Shown here in pieces: positions 737 to 23,494 of a stretch of 39,443 nt of DNA; position 1 is the stretch's first letter, and each line of letters starts with the position of its first letter. Under the pieces are notes generated by a model, which made no database searches, had not been told where the DNA came from, and was given only the letters and a program-made list of their open reading frames with translations. This DNA is from a virus, in UHGV virus genome UHGV-0120658; one strand, 5' to 3'. The translations under genes were made by a program, and so were the position numbers.

Positions 737-1006
737 TTACCTTAAACGCCAGGGGCCTCTATCTTCAATCTGTTCGACTAACCCCTCCTCTTCTAGTTCA
801 CGCAATAGTGCAACAACCCAATATTGTTGGTTCGAACTTGTTGCTTTCCGTTTTTCTCCCCAATCGAGGCCGCTTAGACGAAATACCTCAGCTTGCTTAA
901 CGCCGTTGCCGTTTTTTTGGGCATCTGGGTGAGTTTTAAGTACGGATAAAGCCAATTCTTTGGCTCTGTTGCGCAATTCCGCTCCCTGATGCTGAAACTT
1001 ATTCAT
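737..1006 (-). CDS. Hypothetical 89-aa protein next to the att site
   Basis: ORF co-oriented with int, in GC-normal sequence; family not recognised. Confidence 0.4.
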   Translation of the reverse strand: MNKFQHQGAELRNRAKELALSVLKTHPDAQKNGNGVKQAEVFRLSGLDWGEKRKATSSNQQYWVVALLRELEEEGLVEQIEDRGPWRLR

Positions 1007-1064: not shown

Positions 1065-2096
1065 TCAAAAACTTGCTATTGATGTTGGTAGTGTTGCCAG
1101 CGGATTAAACCGTAATGCAGTTTCCAGGTGATCCGGTGCCAGATGTGCGTAACGCATAGTCATTTTTATATCGTGATGCCCGAGAATTTTTTGTAAGGCC
1201 AGGATATTTCCACCCGACATCATGAAGTGCGCCGCAAACGTATGGCGCAGAACGTGTGTCAGTTGACCGCGAGGGAGCACGATAGACGTTTTTTCCATCA
1301 CGGATAAAAATTGAAAATAGCAGTCTGTAAAGAAATTGAACCCATCAAGCGCCATGATCTCTTCGTAAAGCTCTTTACTGATAGGGATGCTTCTGTTTTT
1401 CTTCCCCTTCGTTCTTACAAAGGTAATTCGGTATTTGGTCACCTGTGAGCGGGTAAGATTTACGGCTTCACGCCAACGTGCGCCTGTGCTTAAGCATATC
1501 TTAACTACCAGTGCCAGAATTGGGTCCTGACGTTTGCAATCAGCCAGCAATTCAACAATCTGCTCATGGGTAAGCCATGCCATCTCTTTTTCTGCGATGG
1601 TGAATTTTCGCATGTTCTCCAGTGGGTTTGGATACGACCATTCGCCCAGGCGGGATAGTTCGCTAAAAACACTACTTAGATAGCTTTGCTCCAGGTTAAT
1701 GGTGACCGGGCTGGCTCCTTTCTTCCATTTCTCGCTGAAGTAGATCTCACCTGTCAGGCGTTTATCTCGATAGTGGGCAAACATTTTAGAGGTGAGATTG
1801 GTTGCAAGAGGATTGCCTAGAGCGTCAACCATCAGCAGCAATTTGTCATAGACATGCTGCCCAGCAGTCAGAGATTTACCATGTAATTTGAACCATAGCT
1901 CAACCACGTCTTTCAGGGTTCGACGATCCACTGATTCGCCCAGCCAGGGCTTTGATTCGGTTTCTTCCATCGTGTGACGCTCAAAAGCCAGTGCTTCGCC
2001 TTTGGTGGCGAATTGTTTACGCACACGACGCCCACTACGTCCGGCGGGGTAACATTCGCAAAGCCATTTTCCTGTGGTGAGTTTTCGTACTGCCAT
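1065..2096 (-). CDS. int: Tyrosine integrase (P2 Int-like)
   Basis: N-terminus MAVRKLTTGKW aligns with remembered P2 Int MAIKKLDDG; C-terminal catalytic signature LRHTFA...GHHDIKMTMRYAHL (R, H-x-x-R, Y). Start chosen at the ATG at 2094-2096, with GAGGG RBS 8 nt upstream on the minus strand. Confidence 0.9.
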   Translation of the reverse strand: MAVRKLTTGKWLCECYPAGRSGRRVRKQFATKGEALAFERHTMEETESKPWLGESVDRRTLKDVVELWFKLHGKSLTAGQHVYDKLLLMVDALGNPLATNLTSKMFAHYRDKRLTGEIYFSEKWKKGASPVTINLEQSYLSSVFSELSRLGEWSYPNPLENMRKFTIAEKEMAWLTHEQIVELLADCKRQDPILALVVKICLSTGARWREAVNLTRSQVTKYRITFVRTKGKKNRSIPISKELYEEIMALDGFNFFTDCYFQFLSVMEKTSIVLPRGQLTHVLRHTFAAHFMMSGGNILALQKILGHHDIKMTMRYAHLAPDHLETALRFNPLATLPTSIASF

Positions 2097-2122
2097 AAAA
2101 AAAGCCCTCATATCAGAGGGCT
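2097..2122 (-). terminator. Hairpin plus U-run just upstream of the int start (candidate terminator for the repressor-orf314 transcript)
   Basis: Stem agccctc (2103-2109) pairs with gagggct (2116-2122), 6-nt loop; on the minus strand it is followed by TTTTTT (2097-2102). Confidence 0.4.
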
Positions 2123-2124
2123 AA

Positions 2125-2153
2125 ATTTAACTGTATATAAAAACAGTATTCAA
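2125..2153 (-). promoter_or_regulatory. Candidate sigma70 promoter for int with a LexA box filling the spacer
   Basis: Minus strand reads TTGAAT (2153-2148), 17-nt spacer, TTAAAT (2130-2125). The spacer 2131-2146 is CTGTatataaaaACAG on the plus strand (CTGT-N8-ACAG). Confidence 0.45.
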
Positions 2154-2187
2154 TGTATTTTTTACTTAGGAGCATACATGTTCATGA

Positions 2188-3132
2188 TTAATCTGTTTCT
2201 TTATCACTTCCAGTTACTTTAACTTTGTCTTTGATTGTATTCACAAATGACGCAAAGCTCGGTGGTTGCTCTGTCTGACCTGAAAATGCAGAGTCACCTG
2301 AAATATTCCAATCCTTAAAGACTTCTATTGCATCCTCTTTAGTTGCTGTAGAACCGTATATCTGCAAAAAAACTTGACCAAACATCAAAGCATGTCGACG
2401 ATCTTTTCGCCTGATCGATTCATGTGTGTACTTTTTTGAGTTACTAAGGCAGATATATGATAGCCATGAAAGAATGGCGATTCCAACTAATCCTCGCGTG
2501 AAGATATATATTAACTGAAGGTTAGTGAGATTTTTTAAATCTAAGTTCATGTATAATGTAAAAAAAGCAGATACTACCGCAAGGAAGCCAAAAAATACCC
2601 CAGCAATAGACCAGATAATAGACATCAATATAAAATGTTTGTCATCACTAGCAAGATCTGATTTAACATCGTTAACATAGGTAGGGATTTTTTCATCGAT
2701 TCTTTGTTGCTGTACTTGGCTACGGAGTTCCTTATTTTCACTAATCAATGAATTAACTTGTTTTACATTTTTTTCGATTATTGCGTTTTTTCTATTAATA
2801 TCCTGAGTATAATGCTCTAACTGTAGAGTTAATATGCTGTTTCGTTCTTCTAATTGTATTATATGTTCTACATAATTATTAGGTTCAAGTGATTTTACAT
2901 TTTTTCTTTTATTAGTTTCATTTTCATTTATATTGGGTTCTTCATCCATCGCTGGCCTAGTTATGTATTTTTCAATTAGTGCTAGGTTATTATGAGCTTC
3001 AGAAAACTCTCCTGCTTCTATTAAGTTTTTTATATGAGAGTAGAAGTGTTTTGCTATATTTTCAGACTGTGAATCAAGAAAGTCTAATAGGTGTTTTTTT
3101 ATTTCGCTATCTTTATTGGTTGGTTCAGTCAT
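2188..3132 (-). CDS. Hypothetical 314-aa coiled-coil membrane protein (two predicted TM helices); cargo in the lysogenic operon
   Basis: AT-rich ORF between repressor and int on the same strand. Heptad-rich N-terminal half, two hydrophobic helices (ILMSIIWSIAGVFFGFLAVVSAFFTLYM and LQLIYIFTRGLVGIAILSWLSYICL, about 2446-2631), soluble C-terminus. Start codon 12 nt after the repressor stop. Confidence 0.6.
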   Translation of the reverse strand: MTEPTNKDSEIKKHLLDFLDSQSENIAKHFYSHIKNLIEAGEFSEAHNNLALIEKYITRPAMDEEPNINENETNKRKNVKSLEPNNYVEHIIQLEERNSILTLQLEHYTQDINRKNAIIEKNVKQVNSLISENKELRSQVQQQRIDEKIPTYVNDVKSDLASDDKHFILMSIIWSIAGVFFGFLAVVSAFFTLYMNLDLKNLTNLQLIYIFTRGLVGIAILSWLSYICLSNSKKYTHESIRRKDRRHALMFGQVFLQIYGSTATKEDAIEVFKDWNISGDSAFSGQTEQPPSFASFVNTIKDKVKVTGSDKETD

Positions 3133-3143
3133 GATGTTTCTCT

Positions 3144-4079
3144 TTATATATTTTTAGTAAAAACTCTTTTACATTTTGCCAAAACGATAATGTCAGTAAG
3201 TAAGCATTCAAAACTTGTGTTAGTGCCTACAACTTTAACCATACCAACGGGTATGCGAGTCAAATCTTTGATGCTTATTTTCCCTTCAATATTCACAAGC
3301 CACTTGCCATCAGTAACTTCATTAAATTTTGATTCTACAATATATATTTCCTCATCAATGAATACTGCTAAAGGTTGCAGAAAGGTTCCTTCTAACAACT
3401 TAGAGTCAAAAGTCAAGACGGTTTCTTGAGCAAGAGATCCATCAATTATTTTATGATATGGGATAGTGATAGTATTGATTCGAGGCTTTTCAAACATTGC
3501 CCCGTTACCAGTGGTTAGCCATGTTAATGAAGCACCAGTTTCCAGTGAGCATTGAATAATCCAGTCAGCAGGAAAGGTATCTCTCATGTAACGATTGGCT
3601 AATGTACTTTTTGATACACCAATATGATCAGCTAAAGCTTGTCTTGTCTTAAATCCATAAGCCAAAACGATTCGCTCTATTGCTGCTTTTCCGCCTTGGT
3701 TAATAGTAAAAAAGTTCTCATTTTGGATGTCTTGTTCTCTATTGAGATGTTGATGCTTGCTGTCACAATTGTTGTGACTTTTTTCTGCATTATTTGTAAT
3801 GCTTCCCTTCTCGGTATCAGTGCCAAATGCCAACCACTCGACCGGCACTCCAGTCTCCATGCTACAGATAACAACCCAATCAGCAGGGAAAGTGTCACGG
3901 GCATACCTGTTCGCCATTGTACTTTGCGATATACCTAGGTGATTACAGAATGCTTGTCGGGAAGAAAAACCATAGGCTTTCAGTATCCGATCTATAACCG
4001 ATTGCCCTCCGCGATTCTGCATGATTAAGGATTTCTTTTTTTCGTCCACATGGCGAAATGTGATTTCGTGTGTTGACAT
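3144..4079 (-). CDS. Prophage immunity repressor with two tandem CI-type HTH domains and a C-terminal beta-rich domain
   Basis: Residues about 24-86 and 129-191 are about 59% identical repeats (AYGF..RQA...G.S.ST.ANRY.RDTFPADW...CS.ETG...WL..G), resembling the phage CI N-terminal HTH. Divergent from the Apl-like gene across the 4080-4167 intergenic region. Confidence 0.7.
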   Translation of the reverse strand: MSTHEITFRHVDEKKKSLIMQNRGGQSVIDRILKAYGFSSRQAFCNHLGISQSTMANRYARDTFPADWVVICSMETGVPVEWLAFGTDTEKGSITNNAEKSHNNCDSKHQHLNREQDIQNENFFTINQGGKAAIERIVLAYGFKTRQALADHIGVSKSTLANRYMRDTFPADWIIQCSLETGASLTWLTTGNGAMFEKPRINTITIPYHKIIDGSLAQETVLTFDSKLLEGTFLQPLAVFIDEEIYIVESKFNEVTDGKWLVNIEGKISIKDLTRIPVGMVKVVGTNTSFECLLTDIIVLAKCKRVFTKNI

Positions 4080-4167: not shown

Positions 4168-4389
4168 ATGACCCCTAACATTTCAATAACCCTGAATACG
4201 CCACATGTCACAATTGAGCGTTATAGCGAACTTACTGGTCTTTCAATCGACACAATTAACGATATGCTGGCTGACGGTCGCATCCCTCGGCATCGCCTTC
4301 GGAAAGACAAGAAAAGAGAAAAGGTGATGATCAACCTTGCTGCTCTTACCGTTGATGCACTTACTGATTGCAATGTTGTATTCAACTAG
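4168..4389 (+). CDS. Apl/Cox-like excisionase-type HTH protein
   Basis: 73-aa ORF, first in the rightward early operon, with HTH-like segment [25 protein letters not shown]; AGGAG RBS upstream. Confidence 0.6.
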
Positions 4390-4421: not shown

Positions 4422-4931
4422 ATGTTTGATTACCAAGTTTCCAAACATCCACATTTTGATGAAGCCTGTCGTGCATTCGCATTGCGCCACAACCTGGTGC
4501 AACTGGCAGAACGTGCTGGCATGAATGTGCAGATTCTGCGGAACAAGCTGAACCCAGCTCAACCTCATTTATTAACCGCACCAGAAATCTGGCTGCTTAC
4601 CGATCTGACTGAAGATTCAACGCTGGTAGATGGTTTTTTGGCACAGATTCATTGTCTGCCATGTGTACCGATTAATGAGGTGGCAAAAGAGAAACTGCCA
4701 CATTACGTCATGAGTGCAACCGCAGAGATCGGGCGTGTTGCTGCAGGTGCGGTATCTGGCGATGTAAAAACCAGTGCAGGTCGTCGTGATGCCATCAGCA
4801 GCATTAACTCTGTAACACGACTGATGGCACTGGCTGCTGTTTCATTGCAGGCCCGTTTACAGGCTAACCCTGCGATGGCGAGTGCAGTTGATACCGTAAC
4901 TGGCCTCGGTGCTTCATTCGGTTTGCTGTGA
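4422..4931 (+). CDS. cII: CII-like lysogeny-establishment activator (coliphage 186 CII homolog)
   Basis: 169-aa product starting [45 protein letters not shown]; recognised from memory as very similar to 186 CII. Start ATG at 4422. Confidence 0.75.
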
Positions 4932-9556: not shown

Positions 9557-9597
9557 TTTACATCAGTAAGATTATTATATACTGTAAATATAAACAG
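9557..9597 (+). promoter_or_regulatory. Candidate SOS promoter with a LexA box overlapping the -10
   Basis: TTTACA (9557-9562), 17-nt spacer, TACTGT (9580-9585); CTGTaaatataaACAG at 9582-9597 matches the LexA consensus CTGT-N8-ACAG. Confidence 0.5.
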
Positions 9598-9640
9598 TGG
9601 TTATACATACAGTATTGCGTGTGGTGTCATAGGAGGAAAG

Positions 9641-9829
9641 ATGCAGGACTATTTTTTGGAGTCTTTGAAGCTCCAGCGCATTGATTTTTTTCTTAAGCTT
9701 GTAGCGGCTAGTGAGTGTAGTGATGAAGAGAAGGGGCTGGCTCTGCAGTGGGTTTCTGAATTGACTGATGAACTCATGGCAAAAATCAGAACCCACGAAT
9801 ACAACCGCTCAATGGATGTCATCAGCTGA
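9641..9829 (+). CDS. Small 62-aa protein in the LexA-controlled module (candidate antirepressor partner)
   Basis: ATG at 9641 with AGGAGG RBS, immediately downstream of the LexA box. Function inferred from position. Confidence 0.45.
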   Translation: MQDYFLESLKLQRIDFFLKLVAASECSDEEKGLALQWVSELTDELMAKIRTHEYNRSMDVIS

Positions 9830-9839
9830 GGTGACTTTT

Positions 9840-10073
9840 ATGCGCATTGAAATAATGATCGATAAAGAGCAGAAGATTAGCCAGTCTACCCTGGACGCCC
9901 TTGAATCCGAGCTTTACCGCAATCTGCGCCCCCTGTATCCCAAAACGGTAATTCGCATTCGCAAAGGTAGCTCTAACGGTGTGGAACTAACCGGACTGCA
10001 ACTGGACGAAGAAAGAAAACAAGTGATGAAAATTATGCAGAAGGTGTGGGAAGACGACAGCTGGCTGCATTAA
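9840..10073 (+). CDS. DinI-family protein (Tum/DinI-like SOS module)
   Basis: 77 aa MRIEIMIDKEQKISQSTLDALESELYRNLRPLYP...KIMQKVWEDDSWLH resembles E. coli DinI (MRIEVTIAK...ETWESADDWF); GAGGTG RBS. Confidence 0.65.
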   Translation: MRIEIMIDKEQKISQSTLDALESELYRNLRPLYPKTVIRIRKGSSNGVELTGLQLDEERKQVMKIMQKVWEDDSWLH

Positions 10074-22915: not shown

Positions 22916-23494
22916 ATGAACGCTCAACTAACAGAAATCATGCGCCTTATCACCAATCTGATCCGCACTGGTGTAGTCACCGAAGTGGACCGGGAAAACT
23001 GGCTTTGTCGGGTGAAAACGGGCGACCTTGAAACCAACTGGATTAACTGGCTGACACTGCGCGCGGGCAAATCGCGCACCTGGTGGAAACCGTCTGTGGG
23101 TGAGCAGGTTGTGCTGTTCAGCCTTGGCGGCAATCTGGAAACCGCGTTTGCCCTGCCTGCGGTCTACTCAAACCAGTTTCCGCCACCTTCAGATTCTGAG
23201 AACGGTAACGTGACGGAATACCCGGACGGTGGCTGGTTTGAATACGAACCCGCCACCGGGCGCTGGTATGTCAGGGGCATCAAATCAATGGTCATTGAGG
23301 CCGCTGACAACATCACCATGAAAGCCAGTGAGTTTGTACTGGAGGCTGACCGCACGCGCATTAACAGCGAAGTGGTGATCAATGGTGGCGTTACCCAGGG
23401 CGGCGGAGCGATGAGTTCTAACGGGATCGTGGTTGATGCGCATCAGCATACTGGCGTCCTGAAAGGCGGCGATACAACCGGAGGCCCGGTATGA
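22916..23494 (+). CDS. V: Baseplate spike/assembly protein (P2 gpV-like)
   Basis: MNAQLTEIMRLITNLIRTGVVTEVD aligns with the remembered P2 V N-terminus; the track ORF from 22886 is an upstream extension. Confidence 0.85.
   Translation: MNAQLTEIMRLITNLIRTGVVTEVDRENWLCRVKTGDLETNWINWLTLRAGKSRTWWKPSVGEQVVLFSLGGNLETAFALPAVYSNQFPPPSDSENGNVTEYPDGGWFEYEPATGRWYVRGIKSMVIEAADNITMKASEFVLEADRTRINSEVVINGGVTQGGGAMSSNGIVVDAHQHTGVLKGGDTTGGPV

Follow-up and report, generated by a model that had tools for sequence, protein, structure and literature searches.

In the stretch of DNA analyzed here (UHGV virus genome UHGV-0120658, 39,443 nt; its full length is hereafter designated the window), which is a segment of an Escherichia coli chromosome carrying a P2/186-like (Peduoviridae) prophage integrated beside rcdA, the tyrosine integrase gene int follows the lysogenic operon cI-orf314 on the minus strand, which raises the question of where transcription of int starts and which signals control it. 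From the observed sequence features, their geometry and their conservation, which serve to predict that LexA and CII bind, where transcription starts and how a hairpin behaves, we lean on balance toward the reading that positions 2097-2179 (minus strand) constitute a LexA-repressed, probably CII-activated int promoter (P_int) with a start-in-hairpin device. The features are listed below, the start site being predicted from the geometry of pE, the CII-activated promoter of phage 186.

2173-2179, minus strand: distal half-site ATGTATG, centered at about -58 from the predicted start
2153-2159, minus strand: proximal half-site AATACAT, centered at about -38, its last T being the first base of the -35 hexamer
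2153-2148, minus strand: -35 hexamer TTGAAT (TTGACA, TTGACC, TTGATT or TTTACA in relatives)
Between the -35 and -10 hexamers, minus strand: 17-nt spacer ACTGTTTTTATATACAG
2129-2148: LexA 20-mer AACTGTATATAAAAACAGTA, spanning the entire spacer and touching both hexamers
2146-2131: LexA 16-mer core CTGTTTTTATATACAG (CTGT-N8-ACAG), filling the spacer
2130-2125, minus strand: -10 hexamer TTAAAT (TAAAAT in the other promoter class)
2122-2097, minus strand: hairpin AGCCCTC-TGATAT-GAGGGCT plus T run (arms 2122-2116 and 2109-2103, loop 2115-2110)
2118, minus strand: predicted transcription start, 7 nt past the -10 hexamer and 38 nt from the center of the proximal half-site
1065-2096, minus strand: int, tyrosine integrase of 343 amino acids (Pfam Int_N and Phage_integrase; same start in RefSeq), the gene that the module would control
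4422-4448: reference CII operator ATGTTTG-N13-CAAACAT at the cII start codon, belonging to a pE-type establishment promoter that fires leftward

A preliminary description of this locus had reported a TTGAAT-17 nt-TTAAAT promoter with the LexA consensus CTGT-N8-ACAG in its spacer, followed upstream of int by a hairpin with a T run at 2097-2122; both were found where it had placed them, and the hairpin was also picked up by a terminator scan. The LexA 20-mer overlaps the core elements (-35 and -10) of the predicted int promoter. Exact matches to CTGTN8ACAG occur twice in the 39.4-kb window against 0.38 expected, and two were reached in 3 of 100 shuffles. When an approximate heterology index built from E. 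coli LexA sites was applied, the int box scored 3.1, as compared with 2.4-12.1 for bona fide sites, and the other sites in the window scored 4.5 and 9.1 (both within 9580-9614), the next best being 14.3. On this approximate scale, the int box would be on a par with the strongest SOS boxes of E. coli. The boxes across the module family gave approximate indices of 1.9-10.1, all inside the range of genuine sites. We take the int box to be beyond chance because it is conserved, not because of the match in a single sequence.

For the analysis of conservation, a set of int homologues was assembled with each species represented by one genome (77 loci), and a second set was taken from IMG/VR (80 loci, Int identity ≥98%). 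Of the 77 species-level loci, 39 have CTG-N10-CAG at the corresponding place ahead of int, as do all 80 IMG/VR loci; the module occurs in a large and common group of phages and is carried by every close relative examined. The box was found in Escherichia, Klebsiella, Citrobacter, Enterobacter, Raoultella, Kluyvera and Serratia, and further in Yersinia, Rahnella, Pantoea, Pectobacterium, Brenneria and Mixta, with Int identity among the carriers reaching down to about 55%. In 40 distinct species-level sequences (window included), CTG and CAG are invariant, and CTG, ATACAG and a flanking T are conserved at 95-100%, while the center of the box drifts. Fixed CTG/ATACAG ends around a drifting center are the pattern expected of a LexA operator, which we predict this box to be. 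At the same position, relatives have TTGACA or TTGACC combined with TAAAAT or TTAAAT. Decayed modules were seen in two species-level loci (L017 and L072), where the left half of the LexA box is mutated to GTG in one and the box is partly deleted in the other, with the -10 hexamer and the hairpin intact in both; the LexA operator is therefore lost occasionally.

The module was found beside int in two genomic contexts. In the arrangement of the window, the DNA that precedes the inverted repeat shows no relationship from one phage to another, because the cargo gene between cI and int differs from phage to phage, and in one locus (L464) the module lies between cI and int with the cargo gene absent. 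In a second layout (ogr→int), shared by a large group of prophages, the module follows the late activator gene ogr, with int inverted and at the other prophage end, implying an inversion or transposition of the int-attP segment together with its regulatory module. This layout was seen in P2-like prophages of Rahnella, Pantoea, Mixta, Winslowiella and Pectobacterium (L033, 3629-5044; L165-L244; L526-L566), where the int cassette comes directly after ogr and its terminator and int is co-oriented with the late genes. Since the module is kept beside int whatever adjoins it upstream, it travels with int, and the idea that it is part of the orf314 cargo was rejected, as the module stays while the upstream gene changes between phages. 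It is absent from phages 186, PSP3, Fels-2 and ENT90, where cI abuts or lies near int, and among sequenced isolates the only potential experimental systems found to carry it were Klebsiella phages 4LV2017 and KP12, E. coli phage 813R9 and a Yersinia phage. One metagenome contig of the ogr→int layout (L529, Ga0268259_10000163) holds a compact element, within about 8 kb upstream of int to int, that encodes CI, an apl-like gene, CII, a 1010-amino acid replication-type protein, U, D and ogr, followed by the int module and int; it lacks the genes for the head and most of those for the tail, and it would be either a deleted prophage or a satellite-like derivative.

An inverted repeat, ATGTATG-N13-AATACAT, which was missing from the preliminary description, was found at 2179-2153, just upstream of the -35 hexamer. 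The pattern ATGTWT-N12-16-AWACAT occurs twice in the window, at the int promoter and at the cII start, as compared with 0.08 expected. In the GenBank record of 186 (U32222), the CII site of pE is annotated at 23435-23462, at the cII start, and is of the same sequence type; 186 CII binds an inverted repeat whose half-sites, at positions -38 and -58 relative to the pE start, are separated by two helical turns (PMC6593788). The repeat at the int promoter in the window measures 20 bp from center to center, has two mismatches to ATGTTTG/CAAACAT, and would place its half-sites at -38/-58 relative to the predicted start. Moreover, when bases are counted onward from where the proximal half-site ends, the -10 hexamer occupies offsets 22-27 in 186 pE (TAAAGT) and 23-28 both in the pE of the window (CAAAAT) and in the int promoter, the pE start being at offset 35.

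The repeat is conserved together with the LexA box. At most 2 of 14 mismatches to ATGTWTG/CAWACAT were found in 36 of the 39 LexA-box loci, against 4-11 at upstream-shifted control positions, and in 41 aligned sequences the distal half-site is ≥90% conserved at five of its seven positions (four of them among the first five), forming a conserved island between the variable spacer and the unrelated upstream DNA. As to the presumed activator, a CII gene could be seen in 21 of the 39 LexA-box loci, and in most of these a pE-type operator marks the beginning of the gene; for the remaining 18, the early region was out of range or CII was undetected. The operator at the cII start was present in 30 of the 77 species-level loci, with a looser half-site pattern, and, among 119 viral stretches in which the exact operator occurs, in 79. 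The element L529, in which CI and CII are joined to the module and int, brings the ogr→int layout together with its CII as well. Because a conserved operator of the 186-CII type adjoins the -35 hexamer, P_int is probably also a CII-activated int promoter at the establishment of lysogeny. The earlier proposal of an int-specific LexA-operator promoter can thus be retained, in that box, hexamers and hairpin are conserved across genera whatever gene lies upstream, and it has to be given up as far as a purely SOS device is concerned, since the CII-type operator had been overlooked. As a side observation, a Pantoea-type CII clade (L364-L443, e.g., L365 near 3661), in which the int module is absent, has ATGGGTG or ATGTGTG, not ATGTTTG, as the distal half-site of pE, with the proximal CAAACAT (doubling as the cII start codon region) unchanged.

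The hairpin lies between this promoter and the int start codon. Its stem consists of seven pairs, five of them G-C, and is followed by TTTTTTT; the run of seven Ts (2103-2097), the first of which pairs with A2122, abuts the int ATG (2096-2094) together with the hairpin, and the Shine-Dalgarno sequence of int, GAGGG (2109-2105), lies inside the 3' arm. The predicted start at 2118 is the fifth base of the 5' arm. A start within the hairpin had been proposed before, and the 186 pE geometry, which is independent of that proposal, also puts the predicted start in the 5' arm. Because of this position, transcripts from P_int would lack the hairpin: the full stem in read-through RNA has a folding energy of -13.9 kcal/mol (z-score, -4.0), and RNA from 2118 would keep three pairs only. 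In 37 of the 40 distinct species-level sequences, a stable hairpin was found between the -10 hexamer and the start codon (z-scores, -2.3 to -8.5), with at least 10 unrelated stem sequences among them and the Shine-Dalgarno sequence always in the 3' arm; the proximal half-site was located in 39 of the 40 loci, and in these the predicted start fell inside the 5' arm. The Escherichia, Klebsiella, Citrobacter and Enterobacter clades have a U run after the stem, and hairpins of Rahnella, Yersinia and Serratia have none, their stem covering both the Shine-Dalgarno sequence and the start codon. Since the U run is missing in these clades, the conserved role of the hairpin is more likely to block translation of read-through RNA than to terminate transcription. 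Thus, the earlier claim that the hairpin stops read-through from cI-orf314 agrees with the terminator-like structure in the window and does not extend to the family, in which the conserved property is more likely sequestration of the ribosome-binding site in RNA coming from upstream, termination presumably being an addition in the clade of the window. A comparison with known RNA families (Rfam 15) gave only sub-threshold, terminator-driven matches, the best being RyhB with 27 bits against a gathering threshold of 55, and such an assignment was rejected.

Several observations weigh against a CII-activated, start-in-hairpin promoter. The hexamers agree with the sigma-70 consensus at just 8 of 12 positions, TTAAAT lacking the A at position 2, and because of this weakness by consensus the int promoter was not listed by a generic promoter scan. 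If LexA stays bound in normal infection, it is hard to account for enough Int for integration. Within a closely related clade, the hairpin shows one compensatory change, which is not above shuffles; because the variation within clades is too small, the replacement of stems across clades was used as the evidence for the hairpin. The link of CII to the ogr→int layout comes from one contig (L529), the early region usually lying more than 10 kb away and out of range; an operator pattern scan of IMG/VR and two CII protein scans found no contig joining cII to ogr→int. The half-sites of the repeat are 19 bp apart in 21 loci and 20 bp apart in 18, whereas those of pE are always 20 bp apart, and according to Shearwin and Egan in 2000 a change of 1 bp in the spacing reportedly weakens CII binding greatly. 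The -35 hexamer of the int promoter is usually near consensus, unlike that of pE (TGTTGC or TGGTCG), so that the promoter may not need CII; the poor -35 that characterizes the pE class, and that goes with negligible basal activity and dependence on CII, is not seen at int, which has TTGAAT in the window and TTGACA or TTGACC in relatives. Finally, 186 has a single CII-activated promoter (PMC7708051), leaving a second one at int with no precedent in a model phage.

Some of these points would be accommodated if P_int were controlled by LexA only and the repeat were left over from a duplication of pE, or served as an UP-like A/T element or as a site for another factor, with the Int needed for integration coming from leakiness or read-through. 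The good -35 in most relatives (TTGACA or TTGACC) would make an activator unnecessary, about half of the loci have the 19-bp spacing never seen at pE, and only one CII-activated promoter has been described for 186 (PMC7708051). We nevertheless consider this explanation rather unlikely, because the repeat is conserved as two blocks around a variable spacer in two unrelated genomic contexts, which argues for selection on a dimeric binding site, and because both its sequence and its predicted -38/-58 geometry match the sole other copy in the window, the pE operator. No other known protein site of 186 resembles it; candidate Apl, CI and Int arm sites were rejected, the 186 sites (TTGGCAAA-like repeats, CI operators and YAYCGCCAYTY) being unlike ATGTWTG/CAWACAT. 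P_int may work like a CII-boosted promoter that stands outside the strict pE class.

The second alternative concerns the hairpin, which could be a mere terminator of the upstream operon or a stabilizing or attenuating 5' stem-loop, transcription starting at or before 2122 and int being limited by attenuation or post-transcriptional control. The start at 2118 is a prediction and a pyrimidine, A2122 and G2121 lie 3-4 nt past the -10 hexamer, and RNA from 2122 would fold the complete stem; Yu et al. are said to have reported in 1994 a post-transcriptional control of P2 int. Against this, the stems, of which at least 10 are unrelated to one another, all have their 5' arm beginning 0-9 nt from the -10 hexamer, a distance that is otherwise hard to explain and that points to a start meant to fall within the arm. 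Moreover, in the TAAAAT class the arm is immediately next to the hexamer, so that a normal start 6-8 nt downstream would lie within or past the 5' arm. Prophages of the ogr→int layout have a terminator of its own for ogr, placed ahead of the module, so that the hairpin must be more than a terminator for whichever gene precedes it. A start ahead of the hairpin therefore appears improbable.

That the LexA box is a chance or decaying palindrome, or one that serves the plus strand (orf314 antisense or a 14-codon mini open reading frame (ORF) at 2179-2223), is very hard to believe, for although A/T-rich promoter spacers can mimic CTGT-(AT)4-ACAG, two exact matches were reached in the few shuffles given above and the mini-ORF with its AGGAG adjoins the box, the invariant CTG and CAG around a drifting center in 40 species-level sequences of many genera, down to about 55% Int identity, the scores of every family box in the genuine LexA range of the approximate index, and the divergence between phages of the DNA beyond the box all speak against it. 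The mini-ORF itself, MFMINLFLYHFQLL (2179-2223, AGGAG), was rejected because it falls within the spacer of the repeat, which is not conserved, and has no counterpart in relatives.

With P_int under the dual control of LexA and CII, the following course of events may be proposed. As long as the lysogen is undamaged, RNA polymerase would be kept off P_int by LexA, and the cI-orf314 transcripts would stop at the hairpin or remain untranslatable past it. Upon DNA damage, RecA-mediated cleavage of LexA would open P_int together with a tum/DinI-like operon (described below). In 186, Tum inactivates CI, after which pR fires and Apl and CII are made (PMC7708051). CII from the lytic pR transcript, available both after infection and after induction, would probably recruit RNA polymerase to P_int; thus, during SOS induction, P_int would be derepressed and probably CII-activated, and Int would be supplied alongside the excisionase Apl as the leftward lysogenic promoter shuts down. 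After infection, CII at P_int could supply Int for integration in a manner like that of lambda pI. RNA from upstream (cI-orf314, or late transcripts in the ogr→int layout) would contain the complete hairpin, with its ribosome-binding site buried, and would be terminated in the window, whereas RNA born at P_int, lacking the 5' arm, would read through and be translatable. The net outcome would be that the own promoter of int is the sole source of Int, with an output that peaks when LexA is gone and CII is present.

More tentatively, and with doubt somewhat outweighing confidence, the element of about 85 bp could be viewed as a portable three-input int cassette, comprising a CII operator, a LexA operator and a start that bisects a hairpin both sequestering the ribosome-binding site and terminating transcription, which moves with int and attP among P2/186-like phages and sets Int low for integration (CII present, LexA bound) and high for SOS excision (CII present, LexA cleaved), ignoring upstream cargo or late transcription. 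If so, it may explain why the cI-int junction is a hotspot for cargo or defence genes, and the deafness to upstream transcription could help explain the tolerance of varied cargo between cI and int. The start inside the blocking hairpin would, if true, represent a compact route to a gene that does not respond to upstream transcription, and the promoter as a whole would give a simple account of how the supply of Int is kept up in SOS induction while the lysogenic promoter shuts down. 186 is among the best-modelled genetic switches, and its published circuit has one CII promoter (pE), one LexA promoter (p95) and int on the cI transcript; the int element would give both CII and LexA a second target, directly at the recombinase. 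It would also be relevant to SOS-driven (antibiotic-induced) mobilization of prophages in Enterobacterales.

Parts of this arrangement are known from other systems, namely LexA boxes at integron integrase promoters, CII-driven int in lambda and Tum induction via LexA in 186. LexA control was described for the integron integrase promoters of intI1 and Vibrio cholerae intIA (Guerin 2009; Cambray 2011; PMC3108266). As in integron intI, the core promoter of a tyrosine recombinase gene is overlapped by a LexA box of the E. coli type (CTGT-N8-ACAG), so that recombination would be SOS-licensed, and conservation over many elements is the chief functional argument. The SOS control of integrons was shown by experiment, whereas that of the int promoter is predicted here; the recombinase belongs to another family and to a prophage instead of an integron, and integrons have neither a phage activator site nor a start-in-hairpin device. 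In lambda, pI is a CII-activated promoter dedicated to int, and the Int yield depends on the promoter from which the RNA originates. Activation of integrase expression by lambda CII has been described (PMC7708051). Likewise, the present int module would have an int-dedicated CII promoter and let the origin of the transcript set the Int yield, separating the needs of integration and excision as the lambda pI/sib system does. Unlike in lambda, however, the discrimination would be made by a promoter-bisected 5' hairpin and not at the 3' end (sib, RNase III); neither the CII protein of lambda nor the site that it binds (TTGC-N6-TTGC) is related to those considered here, and lambda pI has no LexA operator.

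Within the phage family itself, P_int resembles 186 pE in its inverted 7-bp half-sites of the ATGTTTG/CAAACAT type placed two helical turns apart at a predicted -38/-58, in the similar distance to the -10 hexamer and in the encoded CII of the same family. It differs in that pE has a poor -35 and drives cI, with int reached by read-through, whereas P_int would drive int alone, has its spacer filled by a LexA box and shows a repeat spacing of 19 bp in half of the relatives. With the p95-tum promoter of 186 it would share repression by LexA and the coupling of induction to DNA damage (predicted for int), p95 controlling an antirepressor and not a recombinase; for 186, no second LexA target at int has been described. 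In the open-access full-text literature and the 186 annotation, we found no LexA operator, second CII operator or start-in-hairpin device described at int of P2/186-like phages.

The window contains a second region with LexA boxes, which consists of the following features.

9580-9599 and 9595-9614, plus strand: two overlapping LexA boxes (approximate indices 4.5 and 9.1, respectively) ahead of a 62-amino acid ORF
9641-9829, plus strand: the 62-amino acid ORF, with no similarity to 186 Tum
9840-10073, plus strand: DinI-family ORF (DinI Pfam), with 41% identity to residues 71-145 of Tum (C-terminal half)

Judged from its boxes and coding content, the region at 9580-10073 would be the counterpart of the 186 p95-tum SOS operon and looks like a split or replaced version of it, the 62-amino acid protein being a candidate antirepressor for the unusual CI of this phage. 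Because this tum/DinI-like operon has LexA boxes, the phage already uses LexA as an induction signal.

The other genes around int are arranged as follows.

737-1006, minus strand: orf89
2188-3132, minus strand: orf314, of the upstream lysogenic operon
3144-4079, minus strand: CI-family repressor of 311 amino acids with CI Pfam domains
4168-4389, plus strand: cox/apl-like gene
4422-4931, plus strand: cII, encoding a Pfam Phage_CP76 protein (PF06892, E = 3e-42), the proposed activator of the int promoter
Plus strand, with the cox/apl-like gene and cII: fil, dam and replication gene A

A 501-bp query (window 1900-2400), made up of the 5' end of int, the module and the 3' end of orf314, was 100% identical to strain 65COLEC and was matched in 1108 of 5426 complete E. 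coli genomes. In the cI-orf314 operon (2188-4079, minus strand), the two ORFs are separated by 12 nt. The CI-family repressor (3144-4079) has two tandem Phage_CI_repr helix-turn-helix domains and one CI C-terminal domain, whereas 186 CI has one helix-turn-helix domain; the CI proteins at the corresponding position in relatives have about 190-310 amino acids. For orf314, neither a Pfam family above threshold nor a PADLOC family was found; the gene is low in G+C, and its product has a coiled-coil-like N-terminal half and hydrophobic helices toward the C terminus. The slot that it occupies between cI and int holds variable cargo in relatives, such as a 558-amino acid 'chromosome segregation ATPase', a 349-amino acid hypothetical protein, a DUF2511 protein or a small secreted-looking protein, and may be a hotspot for defence genes or morons.

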